The position numbers and the translations under genes were made by a program. Of a stretch of DNA of 64,000 bases, positions 3,543 through 58,414 are shown piece by piece. The notes below the pieces were generated by a model. The model ran no database searches, was not told where the DNA came from, and saw only the letters and a list, made by a program, of their open reading frames with translations. Positions within the stretch are counted from its first letter, which is position 1. Every line of letters starts with the position of its first letter. This DNA comes from an uncultured cyanobacterium. Its GTDB lineage: Bacteria; Cyanobacteriota; Cyanobacteriia; Cyanobacteriales; Nostocaceae. The DNA is taken from the NCBI GenBank assembly GCA_963706595.1, contig OY970166.1, positions 3,648,001-3,712,000 on the forward strand, given 5' to 3'.

Positions 3543-3617
3543 TTATCTCCCCTCCTCGCTTGCGGGGAGGGGTTGGGGGTGGGGTTCCATGATTGTGGTA
3601 ATCGTAACTAATTAACT
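3543..3617 (+). repeat. ~73-bp dispersed repeat, copy 1 (copy 2 at 7485-7557)
   Basis: ttatctcccctcctcgcttgcggggagggg...gattgtggtaatcgtaa-taattaact present twice in direct orientation. Confidence 0.85.
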
Positions 3618-3702: not shown

Positions 3703-4089
3703 ATGTCATATACACCTTCAGACAGCATTTGGATTGTTACCGATGACACTCCCCAAATTTCCACTCCTAACGGTACGAAAGGCGGAACTAACAATACAAG
3801 AGGCTGGGGCGAAGAACTTCCAAAGGATACCAGCAAAGGGGTAGGAGAAGCCGTTAAGGTTAGCACTGAAAAATTAGAGCAAGAAATGACCCACTTTCTG
3901 CAAGTGGTGGGGCGCTTATTTAACCGTGCTGAACAACAAGCTAAAGTTAACTCTGGGATGCAGTTAGATGAAATTGAGTTATCGGTGGAAATTAGCGGCG
4001 AAGGTGAAGTTAAATTAATTGGCAACGGTGCAAAAGCTGGAGGAAAAGGAGCAATTAAGCTGACATTTAAACGGCAAGAATCAAAATGA
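3703..4089 (+). CDS. Small Pepco/Trypco-like (peptidase co-occurring) protein
   Basis: C-terminal MQLDEIELSVEISGEGEVKLIG..KAGGKGAIKLTFKR resembles Pepco/Trypco domains; stop lies 1 nt before the caspase ATG. Confidence 0.7.
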   Translation: MSYTPSDSIWIVTDDTPQISTPNGTKGGTNNTRGWGEELPKDTSKGVGEAVKVSTEKLEQEMTHFLQVVGRLFNRAEQQAKVNSGMQLDEIELSVEISGEGEVKLIGNGAKAGGKGAIKLTFKRQESK

Positions 4090-4090
4090 G

Positions 4091-6169
4091 ATGGTAAAAA
4101 ATTGGGCGATCGCCATCGGCGTTAACCAGTATGATTATTTGCAACCGCTAAATTATGCCAAGCGGGATGCACAGTTAATCCAGCAGTATCTCCAAAATCA
4201 GGCGGGGTTTGAGCAGATATATTTTTTCTCAGATGATTCCCCTGATATTGACGGAAAATCTACTCGCCCAAACCGTGCTAACCTATTGCGAGTTTTGCGG
4301 CAAAGATTTGAACATCCGTTCATGAGTGCGGGTGATAACTTTTGGTTTTTCTTTAGTGGTCATGGCATCAGACACGCTGGACGTGATTATCTCATGCCTT
4401 GCGATGGCGACCCAGAAGATATTGAAAATACAGCAATTGCCATTAATTATGTTACTGAACGCCTGCGTCGCTGTGGTGCTGATAATGTGGTTTTGATTCT
4501 AGATGCCTGTCGTAGCTTGGCTACTCGTGGCGGGGAAGGTATTGGGCGACAAGCGGCTGAGGAAGCACGTCAACAAGGAGTTATTAGCATATTTTCCTGT
4601 AGTCCCCAGGAGTATTCTTATGAAATTGAGGCATTACAACAAGGTGCTTTTACCACAGCGTTACTAGAAGGGTTAGGAATTCAAGGTAAATGTGCCACTG
4701 TTGAAAGGTTGAACCAGTATTTAAATTCTCGTGTGCCGGAAATTGTTCATCAATATAAAAACGGCAAACAAACGCCTTATGTGATTGCCGAGCCTGTAAA
4801 TAAATCTCACCTGATTCTTGTACCCCAATATGCAACCTTAGCCGATATCGCCACACTCAAAAATGATGCTTATCAGGCAGAAGTAAACAGCAATTTTGAA
4901 CTAGCAGAACAATTATGGATGCGGGTGTTAGCTGCGGCTTCAGGGCAGGATACAGATGCAATCAAGGCTATTCAAAGAATTGCACGGTTGCCAAATAATA
5001 CTGAAGGGTTGCGAACAAATTCGGAATCTGGCAATCAAAAGAGTAGCAACAGCACAAACAGCCCTAATGACTCTAAATCGGTAGAGACTCCAAAACCATC
5101 TAAGGAAATTCTAAATAAACCTGCCAGTAAACCGATTCCAATTCCTCCTCAAAAGCAAAATTCACCAGTTCCGAAAACTCCTGATAATAGAGAGCCGAGA
5201 ATTAAAACACCCACGACTCCCAGACAGTCCACAAATTCTTCACCACAACCACCAATAATAACTAACTGGTCACGGCGGAACGTGATTAAAAGCGTTGGGT
5301 TTGCAGGTGCTGGTTTGGGTTTAGTAATTTTAGTACCGCGCCTCTGGCAATCTAATTCACAAACGGTAGATAATTCACAAGTTGTAACTGTAGATAGAAC
5401 GGGGAAAATCATAGACCGCCGTAATGTTGAAGCGAAATCTTCCATTGAAGACTTAGGGAATGGTGTCACCTTAGAAATGATGCAGATACCAAAGGGAACT
5501 TTTACAATGGGTTCACCAGCAGGGGAAGCAGAACGACTTGACGATGAAAGTCCCCAGCGTGATGTAAATGTTCCTGAGTTCTTGATGGGTAAATATCCAG
5601 TTACCCAGGCACAGTATCAAGCAATTCTGGGGACAAATCCTGCTCATTTTAAAGGTGGAAAAAGACCTGTAGAAACAGTAAGTTGGGATAATGCAGTAGA
5701 GTTTTGTGAAAAATTGAGCCAGAAGACAGGAAAAATTTATAGGCTACCCAGCGAAGCCGAATGGGAATATGCTTGTCGTGCGGGAACAACTACACCCTTT
5801 TATTTTGGTGAATCGATAACCACAGATTTAGTTAACTACAACGGTAACTATCCCTACGCCTCAGCCCCAAAAGGTGAATATCGTGAACAAACAACAGATG
5901 TAGGAAAATTTCCGCCAAACTCTTTCGGTTTGCACGATATGCATGGTAGTATATGGGAATGGTGTCAAGATACATATAATAGTAACTACCAAGGTACGCC
6001 CAAAGACGGTAGTCCGTGGTTAGATGGTAGTGATAAAAACATCAAGCTGATGCGTGGCGGTTCTTGGAGCTACGATGCTAGGACTTGCCGTTCTGCTGTT
6101 CGCTATGGAGTTACCCGCGCGAATCTGAGCAACCATGCTGGTTTTCGTGTTGTTGCGGTGGTTGCGTGA
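4091..6169 (+). CDS. Caspase-like peptidase (C14) + Pro/Ser linker + TM + FGE-sulfatase/CLec domain; DGR target protein
   Basis: Catalytic FSGHG and LDACR; hydrophobic GFAGAGLGLVILV; FTMGSP, RLPSEAEWEYACRAG, RGGSW...GFRVV FGE motifs; 3' end matches a downstream TR. Confidence 0.93.
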   Translation: MVKNWAIAIGVNQYDYLQPLNYAKRDAQLIQQYLQNQAGFEQIYFFSDDSPDIDGKSTRPNRANLLRVLRQRFEHPFMSAGDNFWFFFSGHGIRHAGRDYLMPCDGDPEDIENTAIAINYVTERLRRCGADNVVLILDACRSLATRGGEGIGRQAAEEARQQGVISIFSCSPQEYSYEIEALQQGAFTTALLEGLGIQGKCATVERLNQYLNSRVPEIVHQYKNGKQTPYVIAEPVNKSHLILVPQYATLADIATLKNDAYQAEVNSNFELAEQLWMRVLAAASGQDTDAIKAIQRIARLPNNTEGLRTNSESGNQKSSNSTNSPNDSKSVETPKPSKEILNKPASKPIPIPPQKQNSPVPKTPDNREPRIKTPTTPRQSTNSSPQPPIITNWSRRNVIKSVGFAGAGLGLVILVPRLWQSNSQTVDNSQVVTVDRTGKIIDRRNVEAKSSIEDLGNGVTLEMMQIPKGTFTMGSPAGEAERLDDESPQRDVNVPEFLMGKYPVTQAQYQAILGTNPAHFKGGKRPVETVSWDNAVEFCEKLSQKTGKIYRLPSEAEWEYACRAGTTTPFYFGESITTDLVNYNGNYPYASAPKGEYREQTTDVGKFPPNSFGLHDMHGSIWEWCQDTYNSNYQGTPKDGSPWLDGSDKNIKLMRGGSWSYDARTCRSAVRYGVTRANLSNHAGFRVVAVVA

Positions 6170-6170
6170 G
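6045..6170 (+). repeat. DGR variable repeat (VR)
   Basis: Ungapped 126-bp match to 6340-6465, with 14 of 18 mismatches at TR adenines. Confidence 0.93.
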
Positions 6171-6223
6171 GACACTTTGCTCTTTAGCCCTCTGCACCTC
6201 TTATTCTTTTCACTTCTTTCCCT

Positions 6224-6235
6224 CGCCGTTAGGCG
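6224..6235 (+). other. Short GC hairpin downstream of VR (candidate retrohoming cis-element)
   Basis: cgcc-gtta-ggcg after a pyrimidine-rich tract, about 55 nt past the stop codon. Confidence 0.45.
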
Positions 6236-6259
6236 GAAAAAAGTTTTTTATCAAATATC

Positions 6260-6288
6260 TTGATACAAAATCTCTTTTACACTAGATT
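6260..6288 (+). promoter_or_regulatory. Candidate sigma70 promoter for the TR RNA
   Basis: TTGATA-N17-TAGATT about 50 nt upstream of TR. Confidence 0.5.
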
Positions 6289-6291
6289 TAA

Positions 6292-6615
6292 TCAAATTTC
6301 TCATTGAGTTGAGAATTTGAGGATGGGATAGGCACTTTTAGCTGCTGCGTGGAGGTTCTTGGAACAACAATGCTAGGAATTGCCGTTATGCTGTTCGCAA
6401 TAGGAATACACGCGCGAATCAGAACAACAATGTTGGTTTTCGTGTTGTCGCGGTGGTTGCGTGAGCGCTCCCAAAGGTCAGAGCTGATAAGTGGGAATTT
6501 ATCGGGCGTACAATCGGGAGTCCAGACCTGTCCCAGCGAGGAAGGCGACGACCTACGAATATAAAACTGAGTCGGATAGCTTGGTAGGTTGCAAAACCGA
6601 AGACTTGTCCGACCC
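6292..6615 (+). ncRNA. Putative DGR RNA (5' hairpin + TR + structured spacer)
   Basis: Inverted repeat 6292-6320; stem with GGGA loop 6484-6505; stem 6571-6613 enclosing GGTT-GCAA-AACC. Confidence 0.6.
6340..6465 (+). repeat. DGR template repeat (TR)
   Basis: In the VR frame reads [40 protein letters not shown]; 10 AAC/AAT codons. Confidence 0.93.
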
Positions 6616-6722
6616 AACCAAATCTTTTCTAATTAAAGAAGAAAGCACTAGCGTTAGCTGTTAAATTTGTTAACTATTTAAAACGTTTTATCTTAACAAA
6701 ACTTAATTATCACAGTTACCAG

Positions 6723-6760
6723 ATCCCCGACTTCTTTGAGAAGTCGGGGATTTATTTATT
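6723..6760 (+). terminator. 13-bp hairpin + T-rich tail (terminator or REP-like)
   Basis: atccccgacttct-ttg-agaagtcggggat then ttatttatt. Confidence 0.6.
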
Positions 6761-6965
6761 AAGTTCATAAGTAAAGTTTATTGTATTTTGAACGCAGCAT
6801 TTTCTATGGGCTGTTAGTCTTTTATTATGTGAGCAGTTAAGCAATTCTTGTCTGTCTAAGCATTTATGCCAAGTTCATCATGATTGATTAACTCTTCAGG
6901 AATCTCTCACAAATCTATATTCACTAAATACACAAATTTCCCAAGTCTTAATTACTAGCACTGTT

Positions 6966-7286
6966 ATGACTCATTACTCTCTTGATTGGATTGAAGCCTG
7001 GTGTCAAGAAAACGGCTGGACAGAATTATTTGTCGAGCGGCGCAACAACTATTGGGCTTTTCCTCCTGGATGCGTAATGCCTGAACCAATTCCCCATCAC
7101 GTCCTCAACTTAATTAAGGCTGAAAAGGGTTTCACTGTTGAGGAAAGAGTCTGGTCAGCATCAGCAGTAATTAGCACAATTGTAGCTATAATTTCTACAT
7201 TTGTATTTAAGTGTCCCATGCCATTAGTTTTTGCCTTCGCTTTTAACGCTGTGACTGTAGCTCAACTTGAAATTGAAGATGCATAG
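6966..7286 (+). CDS. Conserved hypothetical membrane protein
   Basis: WIEAWCQENGWTELF..WAFPPG..MPEPIP motif plus C-terminal hydrophobic segment. Confidence 0.75.
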   Translation: MTHYSLDWIEAWCQENGWTELFVERRNNYWAFPPGCVMPEPIPHHVLNLIKAEKGFTVEERVWSASAVISTIVAIISTFVFKCPMPLVFAFAFNAVTVAQLEIEDA

Positions 7287-7484: not shown

Positions 7485-7557
7485 TTATCTCCCCTCCTCG
7501 CTTGCGGGGAGGGGCTGGGGTGGGGTGGTAGATTGTGGTAATCGTAAATAATTAACT
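7485..7557 (+). repeat. ~73-bp dispersed repeat, copy 2
   Basis: Direct copy of 3543-3617. Confidence 0.85.
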
Positions 7558-9473
7558 TATACTTCTTTCAAATAGTAATTAAACCGTTTCCGGAGTTTTT
7601 CCACACTCATATCTTGAGTCCAGTATTCCACTAGCGCATGACCAAATGCCCAGGCGTTGCGGTCAGGTGCAGCAGAGTTTTCTAGTAGCAATGGCCAGAG
7701 AGATAGCAAATCAAAGTTGAGAGGATTAACTTTACCTGTATGCAATAGGGAAAACAGATCATAGGCCATTTGCAGTTTACCAATTACAATCGGTAACTGT
7801 TCCACAGGGATTTGCTCTGCTAGGAGATACGCCAGAGTGGGAGAACCAGTTGATACTGTGGCGATGAACTGAAGCACAGGACTTTTCAACAGAGCAGTTA
7901 GTCCTTGAGTGGTCGCCATTTGGAAGGTGTAATGGTCGATGATTTTGGCAGATGCGGCAGTACGAGCTTCTAAGTTACGCAAAAAGCGGGCTAATCGCAG
8001 TTGTTTAGCTGGGGCGATCGCATCTACAATTTGCAGAGATAGTGTTTCTACACCCCAGGCGGCTCGACCTGTTTTGATATCACTGGTAACAATTGGTAAT
8101 ACTAGATTACAGAAGTTATCCAACAGTTGGGCGCGGTATTCGGTAGCGTTGCGAATAGCAATTTCTTTGGGACGATTTCCCGATTCCCAATTGTATGGCG
8201 GTTCCCACTCGCGGATAGGACGAAGACGATCTACTTGGGTAATCACGGCGATGGTTGGTAAATCTGCAACTTCCGCCCGCATATCTTGGAGAAAATCTAC
8301 ATCCATTTGTAGGGCGGGATCAAGAGCCGGGGTAACTAACAGTAGTAAATCTGCGTTTGTAGCATAATCAAGCACCAAATTTCGCAAATCACCACCGTTC
8401 ACCTGTTCATAACCTGGGGAATCCCACAGCGTTAAACTTTCCCCGGTGGAACTTTGCCAATGATAATTTTGAATCTGATCAGTGCTGGGTAAAACATCCA
8501 CCTCTGCGAGATCAGCCTGAAATAGAGTATTAATCAAGCTGCTTTTTCCCGAACCTGTGCGCCCGACAATGAGAATATTTACAGGTTTTTGGGCAACTTC
8601 CTCGGCTGGTTCGGCTTTAGTTAAAATTTCTCGCAGGTTTTGAGTCTTAGCTGTGGGTAGAGTTGGTGTAGAAATACTGGCTTCTGCAACTGGTAATTTG
8701 CTACCACTGTAAAGTGCGATCGCCTGACGGCATAAATTCCGCAGGGCATTTTCCCGCAGTAGTTGACCTAAATTTACTAATAACTGCTGAGTTGCTTGGT
8801 TAGTATAACCCTTAGTAGCTTGCTTGGCCACTGCGACTACAGGATTAAATAGCCACTGCGCCCAATTCCATGCTTGCCAAACTTTCCGAGCCGATGGCTC
8901 AATTTTGCGATAGACTTCATAAGCTTGATAGGCTTGTCCAACGGTAATCTGATTTAGTGCTGGTGATAACTTCTGCATCCACTGATCTAAGTCATCCATC
9001 GTTCCCCGAATTAACCCGTAAGCCTGGGGTATATAAATATTCAACAGGGGATATTGAACTTGAGGATAATATATATGCGCGATCGCTGTGACTAAATCCT
9101 GGCATCTTGTCCAAAAAGTTTGCCAATCTTCCCAAATCAGGCGATCGCTTTCTGCTGCTTTGAGAATTTGTTGCAGTGCGATTTCTGCCTGTTTGATATT
9201 GTCGCTTTGGGCTGGTAGTCCTACTGGCTGATCTGCCGCAGATTCTAACTCTTCTGTGACTTCTGCCAAAGCAGCTTCTACCATATTGATTTGAGGTTTA
9301 GTCCATCTCACCAGCAGCCAGCGCCAGCCCACAAATACCAGGGTAAATATACCCCAAATCCAACTAATACCCCAGGTATGAATTTGCATCCCTGCACAGA
9401 TGAGCAAAAAAGTAATAATTAGTGCAATAGGTAATGCTAATACTACCCATTGCCACAGTTTTAATCGCAGCAT
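7557..9473 (-). CDS. Membrane-anchored P-loop GTPase (Era/YeeP-like)
   Basis: Two N-terminal TMs; GRTGSGKSS, DSPG, TQVD; ATG 9473 preferred. Confidence 0.85.
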   Translation of the reverse strand: MLRLKLWQWVVLALPIALIITFLLICAGMQIHTWGISWIWGIFTLVFVGWRWLLVRWTKPQINMVEAALAEVTEELESAADQPVGLPAQSDNIKQAEIALQQILKAAESDRLIWEDWQTFWTRCQDLVTAIAHIYYPQVQYPLLNIYIPQAYGLIRGTMDDLDQWMQKLSPALNQITVGQAYQAYEVYRKIEPSARKVWQAWNWAQWLFNPVVAVAKQATKGYTNQATQQLLVNLGQLLRENALRNLCRQAIALYSGSKLPVAEASISTPTLPTAKTQNLREILTKAEPAEEVAQKPVNILIVGRTGSGKSSLINTLFQADLAEVDVLPSTDQIQNYHWQSSTGESLTLWDSPGYEQVNGGDLRNLVLDYATNADLLLLVTPALDPALQMDVDFLQDMRAEVADLPTIAVITQVDRLRPIREWEPPYNWESGNRPKEIAIRNATEYRAQLLDNFCNLVLPIVTSDIKTGRAAWGVETLSLQIVDAIAPAKQLRLARFLRNLEARTAASAKIIDHYTFQMATTQGLTALLKSPVLQFIATVSTGSPTLAYLLAEQIPVEQLPIVIGKLQMAYDLFSLLHTGKVNPLNFDLLSLWPLLLENSAAPDRNAWAFGHALVEYWTQDMSVEKLRKRFNYYLKEV

Positions 9474-9949
9474 TTTTTGGTGGTCCGCCCTAATTTTTGA
9501 CACTCCCTACATCTATACTAAATTTATCCTAAAAAACTTCTATGGAAAGTGAAACTCTAATCAAGACTCGGTTATCGTTTATCTGCTGCGACAATTCGAG
9601 CAAGATACCTTAAACAACATATCGGTAAAAGTAATGTTGCGGTTGCTGAAATATATATTCTACGATCTTCAGGTAGAAGGGAATCTTTCGTTTCTAAATC
9701 ACAAAAATTAATTACCTTATAAGCGGGAGCATCGGCCGATGAACCGATGGATACATCCCACACACTACCAGACTCATCAAATCCACAATCGTCGAAAATA
9801 GTAACTTTTGCTCGTATTGGCGTTCGCTCTTATTCTCGAAAAGCAGATTCATCCACGTAGTGTTAAAAAAAATCCGGGTTAATGCGGGTAGTTACTCCCT
9901 TTACGCAAAACTTTTTGAGATGGTTGACTCGATTATTAAATTAAAAAAT

Positions 9950-10276
9950 ATGATCTCCTCCGATGCTAGTTTAGAAACTAAATCACCTGACAATACAGTG
10001 CCGAAGTTTAACGTTAATGTCGAGTTTCAAATAGCAAAACTATGGCATCAGAAAGGCAAAATTGATCGGGCGATCGCTGGCTATCGCAAGGTGTTAGCGG
10101 TCAATCCCATGCACTGGTCATCCTTGCTGGCCTTAGATGAATTGTTAACGATCAAAGGAGAAGATCAAACAGCGATCGCCCTATATCGTCAAGCAATTCA
10201 AAACCTTGCAGTAATCGAATCGGACCAACCAACTCGGAAAAAAGCTTCCCGACGGATCAGCATCGTTCCAATGTGA
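9950..10276 (+). pseudogene. Truncated TPR protein
   Basis: TPR-like AKLWHQKGKIDRAIAGYRKVLAVNP; after about 10200 it runs into the antisense of the GT2 gene. Confidence 0.6.
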
Positions 10277-10710
10277 TAACCAGGCATGATCTCTCTGGGG
10301 ATCTGAATTTTCCGTCTAACTGTTTCATCTAAGTCAGGGCTGTAGAATTGGCGAACCTGTCCTAAAACCATATCTAAGTTCGGATTTGCGGCCAAAGCAG
10401 ACACTTGACGCGCTAGTTTATCCCCCATCCACCGATCATCCGAATCGAGAAAGGCTAAGAAATCTCCTGTTGCTAATTTAATTCCCTGATTTCGAGCTAC
10501 CGCCGCGCCTTGATTTGTTTGATAGTGATAGCGAACCAAGGGAAAACTACGGGCGATTGCTCCCCCACCGTCTGTAGAACCATCATCAACAACAATCACT
10601 TCATCCGGGGTAACGGATTGGGTGAAGATACTTTCCAGCGTCTCGACTAAATAGGCTTCCCGGTTAAAAATCGGAACTATCACACTGATTTTAGGACGGA
10701 CATTGTTCAT
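10198..10710 (-). pseudogene. GT2 glycosyltransferase, probably C-terminally truncated
   Basis: ISVIVPIFN, VVDDGSTD, FLDSDD; ends just after FFRVGW, where the paralogue at 14959-15714 continues about 80 aa. Confidence 0.7.
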
Positions 10711-10773
10711 TTGTTTGTCAATACTTCTTCGGTGGTATATTGGTATGATACAAGTTAAAAATTCAGCTTAATA

Positions 10774-11883
10774 GTGTCTAGTCATATTGTTAAAAATCTC
10801 TATCCTGAAACAGAATTGATTTTATCTTGCGCTCGCACTCACATATCCGATGGTCTAGCGGAGCAAATCCAGTATCAAATCCAACAGGATATAGACTGGA
10901 ATTACTTGTTATCAATGGCAGAAAAGCATCGCGTTATACCTTTGCTATACCACAGTCTTAAGGTTGTCAGCCCCCAGAAAATTCCCACGGAAATTAGCAC
11001 TAATTTAAGAATGCGCTTTTTGGGAAATACGCGAACGAATTTAATATTGACCAATGAAATGCTGCGTTTGTTAGATATTTTTGCCACAAATAATATTAAT
11101 GTTATTCCCTACAAAGGCACAATTTTATCTGCTTGTTTTTATGGTAAAACATCCTTCAGGCAGGTATGGGACATTGATATTCTCGTCGATGAAACAGATG
11201 TTTCCAAAAGTAGAGAATTATTACTATCGGAAGAATATATAATTAAAACTGGTTATGATCGAGAACAGACTTTTTACCATCCTCAGAAAAAAATAGAAGT
11301 AGATTTACACTGGGGTTTGACTCCCTATTATTTCCCGGTCAACCTAGAGTTTAAAAAACTATGGTCAAGAACAAAATCCTATCCACTTTCAGGTGTTGAG
11401 GTGAAAAGTTTCTGCCCAGAAGATTTATTGATTATCCTCTGTCTTCAAGTAGCTAAAGACTGTTGGGAAAGACGGCAACATCTGGAGCAGTTAGCTAAAG
11501 TTTGTGATATTGCAGAGTTGTTGAGAAGTTGCCCAGAATTAGACTGGTTAGATGTGATTAATGAGGCTCGTGGGCGAGGTTTAGAAAGAATACTGCACTT
11601 TGGTTTATATCTTGCCAAAACCCTTCTAGAAGCTGATATACCTGAGATTATTTGGATTGAAGTTCAAGGTGATAATTATGCGATTTCTTTAGCTTATCAA
11701 GTTTGCTCTCAATTATTTGGAGAAATCGATAATACTGTTACTAACCCTAATGATAATTCTATTTTCAATCTAAAATTTAGACTCAAACAATTAGTCTTTT
11801 ATTTGCAGATGAGAGAACGTCCTCAAGACTGGGTGAAGCATTTTCTAGTAATTGCAGGACTTACGCACAGAAGTTATCTGTGA
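10774..11883 (+). CDS. Uncharacterised nucleotidyltransferase family protein (NTP_transf_5-like)
   Basis: IDWNYLLSMAEKHRV, PYKG, RQVWDIDILV, EVDLHW, CDIAELL. Confidence 0.85.
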   Translation: MSSHIVKNLYPETELILSCARTHISDGLAEQIQYQIQQDIDWNYLLSMAEKHRVIPLLYHSLKVVSPQKIPTEISTNLRMRFLGNTRTNLILTNEMLRLLDIFATNNINVIPYKGTILSACFYGKTSFRQVWDIDILVDETDVSKSRELLLSEEYIIKTGYDREQTFYHPQKKIEVDLHWGLTPYYFPVNLEFKKLWSRTKSYPLSGVEVKSFCPEDLLIILCLQVAKDCWERRQHLEQLAKVCDIAELLRSCPELDWLDVINEARGRGLERILHFGLYLAKTLLEADIPEIIWIEVQGDNYAISLAYQVCSQLFGEIDNTVTNPNDNSIFNLKFRLKQLVFYLQMRERPQDWVKHFLVIAGLTHRSYL

Positions 11884-12151
11884 GGATAAAGTGTAGGGGT
11901 GTAAGGGTTTTACTCTTGTACATTTTTAACTTTTCATCTTCTGCCTTGTCATAACGACAATTTTTAACAACGACCTACTTAAATAAAGATTTTCAGGTTC
12001 AGAAAATAAAAGATGCAAGAAAAAAGGTAAAATAAGTAAAAATCCTTAAATCAAGGTGCATCAAGACGTACAAAAAAAAGCGACAAGATATGTTGTATTA
12101 CACCGAAGATACCCTCTATCAAATGTTAAGTAATATTTCGCCAGTGGTATC

Positions 12152-13318
12152 ATGATTTTCTGGAAAAAAAGGTCAATTTTACTCATTTCGACTTTCATAC
12201 TCCTTGGTATCAGTTTAGCTTACTTGGGCAAAGGATTTTATATGCTAGCTTTTGCTGGCAGTCAGGAGGGTGCGGGAGATTTGTTAGAACGCTGGAAAGA
12301 GCAACAGTATATTTATTTAAACACTTATCCTTATTACATGGACAGCGCAGATATCGATCCGCGATTAGGGAAAGTTATTTCGGGAGGATATCCGCCTTGG
12401 GCTTTTTTCACGGGATTTTTCATATTTCCTAATATTTCTTGGACATTAACGTGTTTCTATCAAGTTTTCTTAAATATCTTATCTCTTGGTATTTTGAGTC
12501 GATTCGCCTATCAAATAGGCTTACCGTTCGGCCAAATTTCCGCTTATTTTTTCGTTGCGTCTTGTCTAGCAATTAGTAGTCATTCTACTACGCTCGGTCT
12601 TGGTCAGTATGGCATTATCATTAATGCGTTCCTGATTAGTGTTTACTATTGTGTTCAAACGAGGAAAAATATTCTTGCTGGTATCTTCATGGGAATAGCT
12701 CTAGCCAAACCGAATATTTCTGCACCTTATATCTTAAGTCTCATTATCCATCGTCGGCTCAAACCAGTATTTATCGCTTTTGCTTATATTATTTCTGCGA
12801 CCTTTTATATCGCTTGGTTGACAAAGCTAGATTTTGTTAATGTCTTTTCCCGGTTTTTAAAGCAAATTAAATATGTAGCTGATGATGGCTTTTCAGGCAT
12901 TAATATTCTGATCAATTTGGGAATTAATCAAGAGATTGCTATTTTATTATTAATTGCGATCACAACGGGTGTAAGTATTGTGGTTTTCCAAAAACTACGA
13001 CATACCTCCCTGTTAACACTTTTCGCATCCGCATCCGTCATCGGTCGAGTATTCATCTATCATCGTGTCTATGATGATTTAATGTTAGTTTTTTTGCTAT
13101 TAGCTTTATTACAACTCGCTTTCCAAGTTCCCAATCGGTATAATATCGGTAGCGTTTTCTTGCTTGGGTTAACTCTATGGATTCCTGCGAGTCTGCAAAA
13201 TCTCATTCCTTATTGGTCTAGTTTTCAACTGTTGGTTTGGCTAAGTTTGCTATTCTACTTATTAAGTAATTCATTAACTAATAAAAGTGGAGAATCTCAG
13301 AGCAAGAGTCCATTTTAA
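12152..13318 (+). CDS. Polytopic membrane glycosyltransferase (GT87/DUF2029-like)
   Basis: GYPPW, LGQY, LAKP, YHRVYD motifs; about 10 TM segments. Confidence 0.75.
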   Translation: MIFWKKRSILLISTFILLGISLAYLGKGFYMLAFAGSQEGAGDLLERWKEQQYIYLNTYPYYMDSADIDPRLGKVISGGYPPWAFFTGFFIFPNISWTLTCFYQVFLNILSLGILSRFAYQIGLPFGQISAYFFVASCLAISSHSTTLGLGQYGIIINAFLISVYYCVQTRKNILAGIFMGIALAKPNISAPYILSLIIHRRLKPVFIAFAYIISATFYIAWLTKLDFVNVFSRFLKQIKYVADDGFSGINILINLGINQEIAILLLIAITTGVSIVVFQKLRHTSLLTLFASASVIGRVFIYHRVYDDLMLVFLLLALLQLAFQVPNRYNIGSVFLLGLTLWIPASLQNLIPYWSSFQLLVWLSLLFYLLSNSLTNKSGESQSKSPF

Positions 13319-13434
13319 CAGCAGTTACTAACCATTATATAAAACCTACTCAAATCTACTTTGAGCAGGGAGAAAATGTAACTGAATACTGCTGTCACTT
13401 GCAACTCGCTCCAATCAACGGGTTAAATTAGGGA

Positions 13435-13725
13435 TTCTTCTTTCTTTTATATGACGCAAGTGCCAATACCGCCGTCATTGAATGTATTGCTAGGGCAACT
13501 CCTTTGTTAGTCAACCCTTTATCGGCGATTGTGGAATATTTAGGAGAAAATTACCCCCTGTACTTCAATACCCTAGAGGAAGCGGCAGAAAAAGCGATGG
13601 ATCTAGAACTCCTTCGTCAAGCTACTGAATATTTAAAACACTGTGAAACCCGACAGAAACTATCTGCGGAGTATTTCCTACAAAGTTTCCAAAACAGTGA
13701 AGTATACCAACGCATCAAGCTATAG
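13435..13725 (+). pseudogene. C-terminal fragment of a TPR/glycosyltransferase-associated protein
   Basis: Frame reads FFLLYDASANTAVIECIARATPLLVNPLSAIVEYLGENYPLYF... with no N-terminal part or ATG. Confidence 0.6.
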
Positions 13726-13783
13726 TGCGTGTGATAAAAGATTCAAGATTTGATGGAATAGAAATAGTCAGCAGGATGGGAAT

Positions 13784-14946
13784 ATGGAAACAACCAAGGA
13801 GTCCTTGTCTCAAGCGGTTGAGCAACAGATGAAACTCGCCCAAGTATGGCAAAACAGAGGAAAAATTACCCATGCGATCGCCAATTACGAAAAAGCGATT
13901 CAACTGCAACCAGATTATCTACCCCCTTATCTCCACCTCGTGCAATTACTTGTGCAAACGGGACAGACACAACAAGCCATAGATACTTACCGGCAAGGAA
14001 TAGAAACAGCGATCGCCAAAGTTTGGTTTCCGCCCCATCAAGCCAGGGAAGAGTATCGAAAAGCACTCAAACAACGGCAAGAAATCGGCCAAGCACCAAG
14101 AGTTTTACTTTATACTAATTGTCCTGGAACTTATGGAGCAGAACAAATCAGTCACGCGCTCATGCTTCGACTTGTGAACTCAGGGTATGAAGTAATCTGC
14201 GTTCAAAGTCAAGCGGATCATCATTTGATTCAAGCTAGACAAGCTCTGGGTATCGAACATATCTGGCTGAAAGATGACGCATATCAATTTGGTTATACCG
14301 TCGGCAATGCTTTGGAAGTAGCGGAAATCAATATCTTGGTATTCCCTGGGATGGGGTGGTGATCTTCACGGCTGCAAGGATGTATCCAGTTAAAGGGTAT
14401 CAACATCAGGTGGAGGCGATTAAACAACTCCGACATCTGCCAATTTGGTCACGGCTTTATTTTGTTTGGGCTGGTTCTGGAGCTTTACCAGTGCAACTGC
14501 AAGCAGATTTAGAAGCACTAGGAGTTGGTGAGCAGGTAAAATTCCTGGGAGAGCGAGCAGATATTCCAGATTTACTAGCGGCGGCAGATATTTTTTTATT
14601 GCCCTCTCACGTTGAAGGAATGCCCTTAGCAATTATGGAGGCGATGGCCAAAGGTTTGCCCGTCGTTGCCTCGGCTATCAGTGGCATTCCAGAGGAATTG
14701 GGAGATACTGGCAAACTGCTATCAGATCCAACTATCAATGCGCCAGCGACGGTACAAGAGATTGTGGAGATAATTCAGAAATGGGTTTTGGATAGCGATG
14801 TGCGTCTGCTGGCAGGACATAACTGCCAACAAAGAGCGATGGAGATGTTTCGAGAGGAAAGAATGCTAGATAGCTACGAAAAGGTAATTCAAGGGACTAT
14901 CTATCAAGAACTTTACCGAAAAACGAGCCAAAGCCCCTGGCTTTAG
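13784..14946 (+). pseudogene. TPR + GT4 glycosyltransferase split by frameshift or internal deletion
   Basis: ORF1 has TPR + LYTNCPGTYGAEQ; ORF2 has GT4 C-domain (KGYQ, ADIFLLPSHVEGMPLAIMEAMA); frame changes near 14340. Confidence 0.7.
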
Positions 14947-14958
14947 ACATGGGGAGTG

Positions 14959-15714
14959 TCAATCTGGTGGCTGACCGCAGTAGCTCATCCAGGAGATGGC
15001 GGGAGTATGTTTTTCTTTCCCCCTCGCCCGCATACGATCAATATGACGTTTGTATATCTTGAGCATTCCGTGATGTATCAGACCTTTTTGTTCTAAGGTC
15101 ATATTGCGATCGTGTTTTCGGTAATACAACATGACTCTAGGGATAACCAATTTATGAATATTGTTTTCCCAAGCGCGGATAAACCAATCCGTATCTTCGT
15201 TATCGTGTAGTTTGGGGTCAAATAAACCCACTTGATCAAATACCGCACGACGGTAGAGGGCGCTTCCCAAATTAATAAACTGATAGGGTTTAAAAATGGG
15301 TTGGAACTGATAAGAATTATTATCCAGAGAACCTGTTTCCATTTGCATTCGCTGGATCAATCCCTGAACAATTCCTACTTCGGGATGAGCTACTAAATAA
15401 TCGGCAAATTCGGTTAAAATTCCCTCTTCCCATAAATCATCAACATCGAGAAAGGCGATCGCTTCTCCCCGTGCGTTTTCAATCCCAAGATTGCGAGCAG
15501 CGGAAGGTCCTTGATTGGTTTGATAGATGTAGTGAATTGTATCCTGAAATTCAGCAGCGATTTCGGCAGTGCGATCAGTAGAACCATCATCGACAACAAT
15601 AATTTCCAAGGGCTGATATTTTTGCCCTTGAATATTCTCAATTGCCTGAATTAAAAATCTCTCTCCGTTATAAACCGGAAGAATAACACTGATAGATAAA
15701 TTCTCTCGTTCCAT
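14959..15714 (-). CDS. GT2 glycosyltransferase
   Basis: SVILPVYN, VVDDGSTD, FLDVDD, EDTDW. Confidence 0.9.
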   Translation of the reverse strand: MERENLSISVILPVYNGERFLIQAIENIQGQKYQPLEIIVVDDGSTDRTAEIAAEFQDTIHYIYQTNQGPSAARNLGIENARGEAIAFLDVDDLWEEGILTEFADYLVAHPEVGIVQGLIQRMQMETGSLDNNSYQFQPIFKPYQFINLGSALYRRAVFDQVGLFDPKLHDNEDTDWFIRAWENNIHKLVIPRVMLYYRKHDRNMTLEQKGLIHHGMLKIYKRHIDRMRARGKEKHTPAISWMSYCGQPPD

Positions 15715-15791
15715 AGTATGATAAAAATATATATCCTAACTATTCTGTCTATAATAATATTAGACAAATTACCGATTTTTAAGTTTTTAAT

Positions 15792-16634
15792 TTAATCTTC
15801 AAAGAATATCGCCCAAGGGGTATTTGCAAATTTTTCTTTTAACTCAAAATAATTAGATATAGATTGAGAAAGAGGTAGGTAAGATTGTTTGACTGTAGCA
15901 GGTTTTAAATGCTCATATTCCAATTCGAGAAATTCTTGAACTCGTTTTCTTTCCCGCTCGCAATCTTCAGATAATTCTTCATAAAAAACATCTATTTTTT
16001 GATGTTTATTAAAGAATAAATCGTGTTTATTCATATTCGCTTGCGTGCCATTAAAATACTCAACACATTCTTCATAAGTTAGTGAAACTGTAACCTGCTT
16101 GGGTTCTTCGGTGATACTATCTTGATTGTTTAAGATCCATTGATCGGTTAGAAAAGCCTTTTTTAAGGACAGCAATGTTCTCAGCATATTTTTTCTTTTA
16201 AGATGAATAATTTTTATATCCTGTTGGTTTTGCAAGCAACGCCATACAGATTTTCTGTAACCTTCTCTAGCATGATAATAAAAAATTTTAAATCCTACTG
16301 CTGAAACCGATGAAGCATATTCTTTAAAAACTTCTGTTGCTAGAAATTTTTGAGGATTTTTGTTCCTCATAGCTACCAAGTGACTAGATCGAGAATCTTG
16401 CCCGTATTCGGGTCTATCCCATCCGATAGCATCAGCATCTCTGAATAATTCTCCATAAGTAATTACTTGACTGTGTGAATTTAGTAAACCGAGTAGCAAA
16501 TTCGATCCTGACCTTCCCTGTGAAACGACAACGAATTTACAATGTTGTAACCGGGTACTAAATACTTCTAAATCTCTTAATAAACTAGTTAAAAACTGAC
16601 ATCTACTTTTTATTTTTTTAAGTATTTCTCTCAT
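15792..16634 (-). CDS. Sulfotransferase (Stf0-like)
   Basis: QGRSGSNLL PAPS-binding loop, GFKIFYYH, IHLKRKN..SL, YEEL. Confidence 0.85.
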   Translation of the reverse strand: MREILKKIKSRCQFLTSLLRDLEVFSTRLQHCKFVVVSQGRSGSNLLLGLLNSHSQVITYGELFRDADAIGWDRPEYGQDSRSSHLVAMRNKNPQKFLATEVFKEYASSVSAVGFKIFYYHAREGYRKSVWRCLQNQQDIKIIHLKRKNMLRTLLSLKKAFLTDQWILNNQDSITEEPKQVTVSLTYEECVEYFNGTQANMNKHDLFFNKHQKIDVFYEELSEDCERERKRVQEFLELEYEHLKPATVKQSYLPLSQSISNYFELKEKFANTPWAIFFED

Positions 16635-48460: not shown

Positions 48461-48712
48461 AGGGGCAGATGCTCAATAAAATTCACTAATTTAGTATATT
48501 ATATAACTCTGTATTTGGAATAAATATACGTAATTTATGGTTTATTTTTCTAGCGGCATTGATATATATAGCAACCGACAAGGCAGTTAAGACATAAACG
48601 GAGAATCAAACTTAGACACCATCCGGGTTTTAACCCACTCCCTACTCCCCACTCCCTACTCCCTACTCCCCAGCTTAATTGTGATGTGACGATTCAGTTT
48701 TAGAGTGGGGAA

Positions 48713-50494: not shown

Positions 50495-50660
<166 letters not shown>

Positions 50661-55915: not shown

Positions 55916-57499
55916 ATGGTCAACATCCAACACCATAGCCAAACTATAAAAACCGTTAAAATTCTTGTTGTTGAAGATGAATTTATCCTGGCTATCAACT
56001 TACAAGAAACTTTAGAATCCCTGGGATACACTGTTGTAGATATCACAGATTCCGCAGTATCTGCAATTACCAAAGCCAAAGAATTACGCCCAAACTTGAT
56101 TCTGATGGATATCCGTCTGCGAGGAAAACAGGATGGCATCCAGGCGGCAGAGCAAATATGGAACACTCAACAAATTCCTGTAATTTACGTTACTGGACAC
56201 TCTGATAGAATAACTGTAGAACGAGCAACCTTAACATCACCTTTTGGGTATATTCTCAAACCCATTAAAGAGCAAGAACTTTATGTTGCTATTCAAACAG
56301 CACTCAACCGCTATGAACGCGAGCAGTTTTTAAGTTCTGTCCTCCGGGGGATGGGGGATGGGGTAATTGTGGTTGATCCTCAACGGCGGATTAAATACAT
56401 GAATCAAGTGGCTGAAACACTCACACAGTGGCCATGGAATCAAGCTAAAGAACATTTATTAACTGAAGTTGTCCAACTGATTGATGAACAAACTCAGCTA
56501 CCCGCAGAAAATCCGATCATCTTTGCCCTCGAACAAGAAACTACTATTTATCTAGACAGTCTTGTACTACTGGTTGCTAAAGATGGCAGAACTATTCCCA
56601 TAACTCATAGTGCTACACCTTTAAGAGACAATAACGGTGTAATTACAGGTGCTGTTTTAGTCTTTCGAGATGACACCCAACGCAAACTCACCGCAGAACG
56701 TAATCTTGCCGATGAAAGTGCCAGACAACTAGGAATTCAACTGCTAGAAATGCAAAAATTAACCCAGTTGAAAGAAGATTTTTTGGCAACCACATCTCAT
56801 GAAATGCGAACGCCATTATCAAATATCAAAATGGCCATCTGTATGTTAGAACATATTCTGGATCAACAAGGAGTTTTGCAGTCAACAGCGCCTGCTGCAT
56901 CTTGGTCGATCAACCGTTATTTAAATATTATCCGTGAGCAATGTGAGCAAGAGCTAGACTTAGTTGACGATTTGCTATATATGCAGATAATTGATGCAGA
57001 GTTTTATTCCTTGGAATTAACTTCTATTCAGATTCAAAATTGGCTACCTCACGTTATTGAAACTTTCCAAAAACGTTCTGATAGTAGCCAACAGAATTTA
57101 CAGGTTAGCGTTGCCCCAGATTTACCACCTGTGCTTTCAGATATGTCTATTCTGAACAAGATTGTATCAGAGTTACTCAACAATGCTTGTAAATATACTC
57201 CTGTTCAGGAAGAAATTATCATAAATTCCCAACTCGTGACTAATACAGATGCTGAAATTCCTTTGTTTGAAATTATAGTCAGCAATTCTGGGATCACAAT
57301 TCCCCTAGAAGAACAATCTCGGATTTTTGAAGCATTTTACCGCATTCCTCAAAGCGATCGCTGGCAATACGGCGGCACAGGATTGGGTTTAGCATTGGTG
57401 AAAAAGTTAGTGCAGTATCTCCAAGGTACAATTACTGTCACCAGCACTCAAGGCTGGACAAGTTTCACAGTTCAATTACCTTTGAAACTATCAACCTAA
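55916..57499 (+). CDS. Hybrid REC-PAS-histidine kinase
   Basis: VVEDE..LMDI receiver, PAS, SHEMRTPL, GTGLGLA. Confidence 0.92.
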   Translation: MVNIQHHSQTIKTVKILVVEDEFILAINLQETLESLGYTVVDITDSAVSAITKAKELRPNLILMDIRLRGKQDGIQAAEQIWNTQQIPVIYVTGHSDRITVERATLTSPFGYILKPIKEQELYVAIQTALNRYEREQFLSSVLRGMGDGVIVVDPQRRIKYMNQVAETLTQWPWNQAKEHLLTEVVQLIDEQTQLPAENPIIFALEQETTIYLDSLVLLVAKDGRTIPITHSATPLRDNNGVITGAVLVFRDDTQRKLTAERNLADESARQLGIQLLEMQKLTQLKEDFLATTSHEMRTPLSNIKMAICMLEHILDQQGVLQSTAPAASWSINRYLNIIREQCEQELDLVDDLLYMQIIDAEFYSLELTSIQIQNWLPHVIETFQKRSDSSQQNLQVSVAPDLPPVLSDMSILNKIVSELLNNACKYTPVQEEIIINSQLVTNTDAEIPLFEIIVSNSGITIPLEEQSRIFEAFYRIPQSDRWQYGGTGLGLALVKKLVQYLQGTITVTSTQGWTSFTVQLPLKLST

Positions 57500-57532
57500 A
57501 TTCCCTACTCCCCACTCCCTACTCCCCACTCC

Positions 57533-58414
57533 CTACTCCCCACTCCCCAGATGATCTCGCAATGCTTCACGCATCACCTCTATCGGTAGAGTTTCCCTTT
57601 GTAACCAGATTTTTAATGCGGCTACACCTTGCTGAACGAGCATTTCTAAGCCATTGATAGCGATCGCACCTTGCTTTTGGGCTTGTTGCAGAAATTGTGT
57701 AGCGTTAGGAGTATATATTAAATCATAGGCGATCGCACCTGGGGATAATTTCTGCATATCTTCCACACTCACAGGCGAATCATCAATGTGAGGATACATA
57801 CCTACAGGGGTGGTATTTACTAGCAAGTTAGCTTGGGGAATCAGTTGTGCTAAATCATCCCATAGATGAATTTGTAATTTTGCAGCTATCGGTGTATTTT
57901 CCCAACTATTACGAAACTCTAGTAATCTCTGCATATTACGCCCCACAACATGAATTTGGGACAAACCTAGCTGCTGACAACCTGCAACAACTGCCCTAGC
58001 TGCGCCACCATGTCCTAAAATTACCGCTACCTTTTGACTCCAGTCCTGCTGATATGTTGTCTGCAAGGGAGCAATAAAACCTTCTATATCCGTATTTGTG
58101 CCTACCCATTGATTATTCTGGCGGCTCACGGTATTGACTGCGCCGATACTCTGTGCTATTGGGGTAATTTCTGATAATAATGGCATAATTGCCTGTTTAT
58201 GCGGAATAGTGACACTAAAACCCACAACATTTATAGCTGCGAAGCCTGCGATCGCCACCTCTAAATTCTCTGGTTTAATCGGAAAAGGTAGATAAATATA
58301 ATCTAATCCTAATTGAGCCAAAGCCGCATTATGCATCACTGGCGATAGCGAATGTTCTACTGGATGCCCAATTACGCCCAAAAGTTGAGTTTTACCTGTA
58401 ATTAATTTAGTCAT
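57533..58414 (-). CDS. aroE: Shikimate dehydrogenase
   Basis: HSLSPVMHN, VTIPHK, GAVNT, NTTPVGM. Confidence 0.96.
   Translation of the reverse strand: MTKLITGKTQLLGVIGHPVEHSLSPVMHNAALAQLGLDYIYLPFPIKPENLEVAIAGFAAINVVGFSVTIPHKQAIMPLLSEITPIAQSIGAVNTVSRQNNQWVGTNTDIEGFIAPLQTTYQQDWSQKVAVILGHGGAARAVVAGCQQLGLSQIHVVGRNMQRLLEFRNSWENTPIAAKLQIHLWDDLAQLIPQANLLVNTTPVGMYPHIDDSPVSVEDMQKLSPGAIAYDLIYTPNATQFLQQAQKQGAIAINGLEMLVQQGVAALKIWLQRETLPIEVMREALRDHLGSGE

Follow-up and report, generated by a model that had tools for sequence, protein, structure and literature searches.

The locus described here is a diversity-generating retroelement (DGR) cassette in a 64,000-nucleotide stretch of DNA (the window; positions 3,648,001 to 3,712,000 of contig OY970166.1, assembly GCA_963706595.1, abbreviated C1 below) from an uncultured cyanobacterium of the family Nostocaceae. 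A target gene that ends in a variable repeat (VR) is followed by a template repeat (TR) and a spacer RNA (Sp), and this VR/TR pair is a genuine DGR pair inside a complete template-RNA cassette that is not an autonomous DGR. Neither a reverse transcriptase (RT) nor Avd is encoded at the locus, and profile searches of the window range (C1:3648001-3712000) returned no RT (PF00078) or Avd (PF22296) match, in agreement with the original prediction, made from the letters of this DNA, that both genes are absent from the 64 kb. The features of the locus, in window positions, are the following.

3703..4089, + strand: Pepco gene, 128 aa (Pfam PF24393, E=4e-38)
4091..6169, + strand: target gene, 692 aa (open reading frame with caspase-like C14 domain, linker, hydrophobic segment and FGE-sulfatase/CLec domain)
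6045..6170, + strand: VR, the last 41 codons of the target (ungapped comparison with the TR)
6171..6250, + strand: pyrimidine tract and short GC hairpin (6224-6235) behind the VR (fold; homology to other DGR targets)
6260..6288, + strand: sigma-70-like promoter, -35 at 6260-6265, 17 nt, -10 at 6283-6288 (9/12 matches)
6297..6324, + strand: relic of the 3' end of an RT gene, kept as a hairpin (6-bp stem 6298-6303/6310-6315; TGA 6318-6320)
6324..6332, + strand: leader strand, partner of spacer positions 6527-6535 (minimum-free-energy and centroid fold; covariation)
6340..6465, + strand: TR, with 29 adenines and 10 AAY codons (ungapped comparison with the VR)
6466..6622, + strand: Sp, about 157 nt (fold, covariation; found behind the TR in RT-bearing DGRs too)

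Direct comparison confirms that 6045-6170 recurs ungapped at 6340-6465, as had been predicted, with 18 of 126 positions differing: mismatches fall on 14 of the 29 TR adenines vs 4 of the 97 other positions (Fisher p=1.0e-7), and only two sit on VR adenines. This recount reproduces the predicted 18 and 14, with the qualification that two of the 14, at TR adenines 6353 and 6388, are probably drift in the window TR, because both adenines are private to that TR and the VR keeps the base found in most other cassette TRs (31/33 and 29/33). The adenine bias survives with these two sites removed (12/27 A vs 6/99 non-A, p=7.5e-6). Adenines 6410 and 6421 are also private to the window TR (G in 32/33 and 33/33 of the others); at these sites the VR reads C and T instead of A or the common G, which a VR mutagenised from the window TR would be expected to show. 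Six non-homing differences have accumulated in the pair, one of them in the 3' invariant part. The likeness of the repeats breaks off sharply at both ends, and the TR lies 295 bases downstream of the VR; the two are nearly adjacent, as predicted, with a gap of 169 bases (6171-6339) rather than the 170 bp first given. Also as predicted, the TR holds ten in-frame AAY codons and an A-free 3' part, and the target has an FGE/CLec end, with PF03781 matching aa 462-688 and the CLec domain matching the DGR variable protein TvpA (2y3c, E=2.8e-24).

The evidence supports a unit larger than the two repeats, namely a full template RNA with spacer spanning 6296-6622. Both folding and covariation indicate structured RNA around the TR, comprising a duplex of the upstream segment with Sp, a duplex of the TR end with Sp, and stems within Sp. 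The predicted spacer pairings are 6467-6472 with 6516-6521 (a template:primer-like duplex whose first strand is formed by the bases immediately behind the TR), a hairpin at 6486-6503 and a 3' stem at about 6569-6615. Among distinct cyanobacterial DGR RNAs, each counted as one row and compared with shuffles that ignore kinship, the TR-end:Sp duplex covaries (at each of two free positions, pairing is kept in 50 of 52 rows vs a shuffle mean of 41), as does the leader:Sp duplex (49 of 55 rows at the best position vs a shuffle mean of 34). VR/TR identity stops at 6465, right before the duplex strand, as would be expected if cDNA begins there.

Upstream of this RNA, the 6171-6250 region is common by homology to the targets of other DGR loci and is likely a cis homing element; its GC hairpin, with z of about -1.5 to -1.9, is weak alone. 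In BPP-1, the hairpin behind the VR has a homing role. The sigma-70-like site at 6260-6288 could drive the template RNA and lies in a region conserved throughout the lineage of RT-less cassettes described below; the scan that located it found two sites vs 1.5 expected by chance, the site is not significant alone, and promoter and terminator scans in general gave counts no higher than chance. A hairpin at 6721-6753 was considered as a terminator and dropped, being a dispersed repeat. An Rfam scan of 5800-7000 gave no family at gathering score (RT-3, 13.7 bits vs 40.5). In an RNA library, a relative's 274-nt contig covers 6306-6579, a weak hint at most, as contigs cannot demonstrate transcription.

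The nearest structural counterpart is BPP-1, for which template:primer and 'cPRT Stop' duplexes are described and the same layout is predicted for cyanobacterial DGRs (bioRxiv 2023.10.23.563531). To the extent that the sources set it out, the cassette RNA resembles the BPP-1 DGR RNA in that an upstream segment and the TR 3' end both pair with Sp (8ub7), and in that the duplexes lie two bases apart and Sp has 5' and 3' stems (bioRxiv 2023.10.23.563531). The two differ in origin and in the kind of evidence: the upstream segment derives here from the RT 3' end plus a linker and in BPP-1 from avd, and the pairing here is predicted and covarying, whereas the BPP-1 RNA is solved (PDB 8ub7).

The origin of the upstream segment is recorded in a 28-nt relic whose alignment to DGR RT genes keeps the exact register of their 3' ends (summed identity 173 vs 104 when shuffled, p=0.0014, over 14 RT 3' ends, three non-fitting ones included). 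All six pairs of its hairpin are kept (6/6) despite changed letters, and its TGA stands in the register of the RT stop codon. An old deletion would have removed avd and nearly all of the RT gene from a target-avd-RT-TR element while leaving all of the RNA requirements in place. An avd-RT downstream of the spacer that was lost many times (an order known in genome G012 and locus L111) was rejected for this lineage, since the RT relic lies upstream of the TR and no trace of avd or RT follows the spacers in the flanks of the first sets.

The RT-less junction of promoter, hairpin and leader is common to 34 cassettes in 31 of 301 family genomes (about a tenth), and coordinate comparison across the 301 shows that none of the 34 adjoins an RT. 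Their targets retain a normal C-terminus in 32 of 34 cassettes, and Pepco and the caspase stand upstream in 25 of 34, a count limited by flank length. A spacer-motif scan of the genome collection found at least 118 loci, of which 80 with long flanks were classified; among the matches listed, 27 of these 80 lie within 2.5 kb of an RT or avd, 23 are target-VR-TR-spacer cassettes that lack an RT, 16 have a gene fused straight to the spacer and 14 are of other kinds, shares that are skewed to the window lineage because the motif was derived from the window. This sample overlaps the 301 genomes, and the counts are not summed. RT-less cassettes among the matches listed occur in Nostoc, Brasilonema, Scytonema, Anabaena, Pelatocladus, Rhizonema and others. 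The window junction is present in 14 of the 22 RT-less loci aligned among those matches; the rest have unrelated junctions, which argues for several independent origins. Median identity to the window's cassette and to the paralogous cassette, respectively, is 0.84 and 0.91 for the promoter/leader, 0.83 and 0.91 for the TR, and 0.88 and 0.89 for the spacer; the medians for fourfold sites in the neighbouring FGE coding sequence are lower, 0.71 and 0.58, these sites being an imperfect neutral control because targets shuffle domains.

These data bear on the possibility that the cassettes are plain remnants, each of them a decaying full DGR whose avd-RT was lost recently in cis, as has been suggested for Nostoc all3226. 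The RT 3'-end relic, the collapse products (the 16 gene-spacer fusions just mentioned), several eroded pairs with 7-11 non-A changes, the drift in the window TR, and the unrelated RT-less junctions in other genera, from which it is seen that such deletions recur, all fit that explanation. However, many recent deletions cannot account for a single junction common to 31 genomes from several genera, conservation of the RNA parts exceeds that of synonymous sites, and TRs diverged after the junction formed while VRs followed with fresh adenine changes. Neither recent lineage-specific loss nor decay of TR and spacer was found, this copy having some drift, and we consider the explanation decidedly unlikely.

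Relatives of the cassette show a variety of other arrangements. Four congeners share an arrangement at the same chromosomal site (loci L038, L044, L048 and L056), where VR x TR recombination has joined the FGE gene directly to the spacer, and at L038:6226-7200 the gene ends in unmutated template sequence. L049:6979-7293 is a stand-alone hairpin-leader-TR-spacer of the window lineage with no target adjoining, in company with a full DGR on another contig. Other DGR orders include target-TR-spacer-avd-RT (L054, L111) and an avd-RT inverted relative to the TR (L146, L158), and at L042:6968-7373 a full DGR has its TR interrupted by an insertion of about 320 bases.

Evidence that the lineage was rewritten after the junction formed comes from pairwise comparisons of VRs with their own and other TRs, comparisons that are not independent of one another. 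The window VR has 3/78 non-A core mismatches with its own TR and at least 9 with each of 32 TRs from other genomes (median 14). In the nine diagnostic columns that separate the window cassette from its paralogue, the window VR agrees with its own TR at seven and with the other at none, and the paralogue VR agrees with its own at nine. Over all pairs, where the TRs differ at non-A columns, the VR matches its own TR at 9041 of 10078, the other at 670 and neither at 367. Cassettes with TRs 0-2 positions apart have VRs that differ at 12-21 of 24-25 adenines and at 0-9 non-A positions, and two cassettes in one RT-bearing genome have VRs that differ at 21/24 A and 0/81 non-A positions. VR/TR mismatches for the whole lineage total 447/832 at A vs 116/2732 at non-A, and half of the cassettes (17/34) carry 0-1 non-A change. 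Ordinary VR-TR recombination does occur (in L234 and L235, from two genomes, the 5' parts of the TRs have lost their adenines and equal the VR, an apparent VR-to-TR conversion, and gene-spacer fusions are a further product), but it would erase rather than create a pattern in which VRs follow their own TRs and are mutated at A. One shared deletion, then divergence of TRs that VRs tracked and from which they were re-mutated at adenines, requires a mutagenic RT in trans, and from these alignments we infer that adenine-mutagenic homing continued after avd-RT was lost in cis. The original prediction of a minimal non-autonomous target+TR cassette therefore stands as to non-autonomy and not as to 'minimal', a full RNA with spacer being present; its other option, a remnant, fits the origin by avd-RT deletion to which the RT relic points, and does not fit a dead remnant, as the lineage was mutagenised later.

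What the source genome itself could supply is limited. A genome-wide search for a DGR RT and avd, the check that the original prediction had named, returned one of each, the Avd intact and the RT truncated, in the sole DGR core of the genome (CLec target, avd, RT), which lies at C1:4.62 Mb, about 970 kb from the cassette. The single Avd (C1:4624841-4625197) is full length (NF033474 above cut-off). The RT of this master locus has 304 codons, and a 352-aa relative aligns only to residue 293, the last ~60 residues being gone; the frame is open and retains the SQ and YVDD motifs, and alignment to BPP-1 bRT (8ub7) places its stop at about residue 275 of 328, with most of the thumb lost. In BPP-1, the thumb touches the template:primer duplex and is ringed by Sp, as described in bioRxiv 2023.10.23.563531. 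The master locus has no TR or spacer of its own, and because the DNA after its RT lies behind the spacer in a congener, a single deletion must have taken the RT tail, TR and spacer together; the tail was not found anywhere else in the genome. The master locus is also cut in two congeners, at different positions (103 and 128 residues). The remaining RTs of the genome, with frames of 557 aa (two), 748 aa and 1196 aa, were rejected as providers, since they are at most 27% identical to the DGR RT or do not match it, and have no Avd.

The spacer motif matches only two spacers in the genome, those of the window cassette and of a second target+TR+spacer cassette at C1:4.451 Mb, whose own TR gives 13/25 A vs 1/103 non-A mismatches and whose spacer is 96% identical to that of the window over 154 nt. 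The VR family of the master target differs from both cassette TRs, its VR matching the window TR over 51 nt at 75%, and the window cassette, with a TR of its own, is not a remote target whose VR matches an RT-side TR. It is very improbable that the cassette is active in this genome now through the 304-aa RT and the intact Avd. Such activity would accord with the full-length Avd, the open RT frame with its two motifs, and two cassettes whose template RNAs would stand in for the TR that the master locus has lost; it is opposed by the loss of most of the thumb, by the lack of the tail elsewhere in the genome, and by the six non-homing differences in the window pair. Because the only DGR RT of the genome is truncated, the window cassette is probably frozen now. 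The predicted service in trans by an RT elsewhere thus holds for the lineage, with its post-loss mutagenesis, and not for this genome today.

The genome also carries FGE genes outside these loci. A caspase-FGE gene at C1:1872929-1870953 (- strand) has a VR like that of the master target, in which its frame runs off, apparently through a one-base insertion, and no TR matching this VR remains in the genome. VR-like ends for which the genome has no close TR are seen in further FGE/CLec genes on C1, near 0.646, 0.820, 3.872, 4.509-4.510 and 5.250 Mb; the end of the one at 3.872 Mb shares its downstream DNA with a spacer-less cassette of relative genome G002, which suggests a collapsed cassette.

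We favour, as the probable explanation, a selected non-autonomous (satellite) DGR lineage that was rewritten in trans in episodes and is frozen in this genome. The cassette would make its own template RNA; a full DGR elsewhere in the cell would supply RT and Avd, which would bind that RNA; and the TR would be copied with errors at adenines, the cDNA then replacing the VR and altering the ligand-binding loops at the C-terminus of the CLec domain. In the present genome the cassette would have stopped on its last variant.

Several results weigh against this explanation. Intact DGR RTs (full-length and stop-free) are not enriched in cassette genomes (8/31 vs 59/270, p=0.65; kin genomes are not independent), and 17 of the 31 have no DGR RT match at all; in an overlapping set of 23 genomes, 18 have no DGR RT and only two an intact one. 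G020, a near-complete genome with a fresh-looking pair (1/80 non-A), has no RVT_1 and no Avd match, and VR/TR freshness shows no significant relation to RT presence (p=0.12-0.37). For 16 of the 34 cassettes, either the pair is eroded or there are more than two cases in which at least one other TR stays within the number of mismatches of the own TR. Covariation is not significant when only the RT-less lineage is considered (6 and 8 distinct rows), the whole template-RNA fold reaches only z=-0.9, and the fourfold-site control is imperfect. The mechanism of Pepco is known from a serine protease, not a caspase (PMC12642450). Finally, a sequencing-run index listed 22 runs, with a best word share of 0.10 and none with this stretch; four runs at 82% likeness gave relatives' contigs only, none across the VR.

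The scarcity of intact RTs in cassette genomes implies that service is not steady, and is either episodic or confined to donors from which cassettes are later passed on. Cassette genomes do have an excess of broken DGR RTs (6/31 vs 14/270, p=0.010, with kin not independent). Family profiles run against five RT-less genomes matched a broken avd in one and, in the near-complete genome noted above, neither RVT_1 nor Avd. Nostocales plasmids also carry full DGRs of this clade, which account for 6 of 9 plasmid matches; target, avd and RT are all present on each of the two plasmids inspected, both of which are typed as non-mobilizable; such plasmid-borne DGRs may offer a route by which an RT comes and goes. 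Service in episodes would follow from full DGRs being gained and broken faster than cassettes are lost.

The second option, that diversification takes place only in strains with a full DGR and that finished cassettes spread by horizontal transfer or recombination and are inert in recipients, seems unlikely to us. It would account for identical TR cores across two genera, for different targets and TR types at one chromosomal site in congeners, and for the absence of an RT from most cassette genomes. The block from Pepco to TR is also bracketed by a 41-nt GC-rich repeat, 93% alike, at window 3543-3583 and 7485-7525, which might help its exchange. Donors would nevertheless still need homing in trans, as no cassette of the lineage adjoins an RT, and divergence at the fourfold sites near the RNA far exceeds that of the RNA itself, unlike what recent whole-cassette transfer would leave. 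The cassette junction, moreover, has no match on plasmids or phages: what plasmids gave was TR-Sp belonging to full DGRs, or else VR-like parts (7 records), and the spacer motif had no match in viral contigs.

The target protein has a caspase-like C14 domain at aa 4-233 (His motif aa 89-92, Cys motif aa 138-141), a low-complexity linker, and a hydrophobic segment at aa 398-416 ahead of the FGE-sulfatase/CLec domain, and its database relatives are from named Anabaena, Nostoc, Nodularia and kin, which places the host in the Nostocales. Across 3703-6169, the Pepco gene thus directly precedes a protease-sensor fusion whose catalytic residues are intact. In PMC12642450, Pepco is described as a pore switched on by a protease, with FGE sensors and cyanobacteria named. 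By analogy, the Pepco gene product is a putative latent pore-forming effector and partner of the protease, and the most likely role of the target is that of sensor in an abortive defence module of the Pepco-protease kind. The locus resembles those antiviral modules in having Pepco as the immediate upstream neighbour of a sensor-fused protease; it differs in that the module assayed there is a serine protease-Avs4, whereas here a caspase-like protease is joined to a hypervariable CLec and the function is putative (PMC12642450). If the characterised serine-protease system is a guide, the caspase would be activated when the CLec domain binds, and would then cleave Pepco to give a pore.

Further along the window, an open-reading-frame run at 9860-16634 resembles glycosyltransferases, TPR-like proteins, a nucleotidyltransferase and a sulfotransferase, as judged by eye from translations, and heptamer tandem repeats occur at 2441-2514, 48620-48673, 50495-50589 and 57497-57564, which we take to be of a type typical of heterocystous cyanobacteria.

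Chromosomal DGRs of cyanobacteria, with FGE-sulfatase/CLec targets and remote CLec targets, have been surveyed (Vallota-Eastman 2020, PMC7517822), and for full elements, high TR-RNA expression, RT inactivation and A-specific variation are reported (PMC4143802, PMC3610870, PMC12691664, PMC6596454, PMC8867640, PMC3521204). The window cassette shares with these target-avd-RT-TR elements (PMC7517822; Trichodesmium, PMC4143802; N. punctiforme, PMC12691664) a CLec target with a 3' VR, an AAY-rich TR, the same leader/spacer family and caspase-fused targets; in Trichodesmium IMS101, a pseudogenised RT alongside TR RNA that persists has been described (PMC4143802). Unlike them, it has no avd or RT at the locus, its RT-less junction is common to several genera, and its TR is private to the target and of a type other than the VR family of the master locus. 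A precedent is all3226 of Nostoc PCC 7120, a dispersed CLec paralogue with TR-VR homology and neither an RT gene nor a pseudogene nearby; it is noted once, in section 6 of PMC7517822, as a remnant, in a passage that takes up neither RNA anatomy nor lineage nor post-loss homing. Action in trans on targets that use the TR of another locus, and incomplete loci, are likewise described (Wu 2018, PMC5758913; Dore 2024, PMC10907252). Homing at a distance with components that work in trans is the likeness to those remote targets, which, as described there, take the master's TR, whereas the window cassette has its own template RNA and would borrow only proteins. No paper on a conserved RT-less target+template lineage was found in a search that lay outside most subscription papers and all supplements (e.g. 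PMC7517822 Table S3). Because DGR surveys start from the RT gene, RT-less target+template cassettes would have been missed or dismissed as debris.

A broader proposal, which we put forward tentatively and consider less likely than not, is that these loci are 'standby' Pepco-caspase-CLec sensors that carry their own template RNA and have no RT by design. Re-rolling would take place only during the passage of a full DGR, at times plasmid-borne, through the lineage, and the sensors would be frozen once its RT breaks. The mutator would then be shared and short-lived and the cassette would be the stable unit under selection, and surveys anchored on the RT would have missed about as many family loci as they counted.

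The RT-less cassettes form one old lineage, present in 31 of the 301 sampled family genomes and situated on what is most likely a cell-death defence module. If service in trans is confirmed, they would represent a natural split into autonomous and non-autonomous DGRs and a natural minimal template-RNA unit of about 330 nt. Such service would also explain how one cell diversifies several sensors with different templates, and would provide these cyanobacteria with a mechanism for turning hypermutation on and off.

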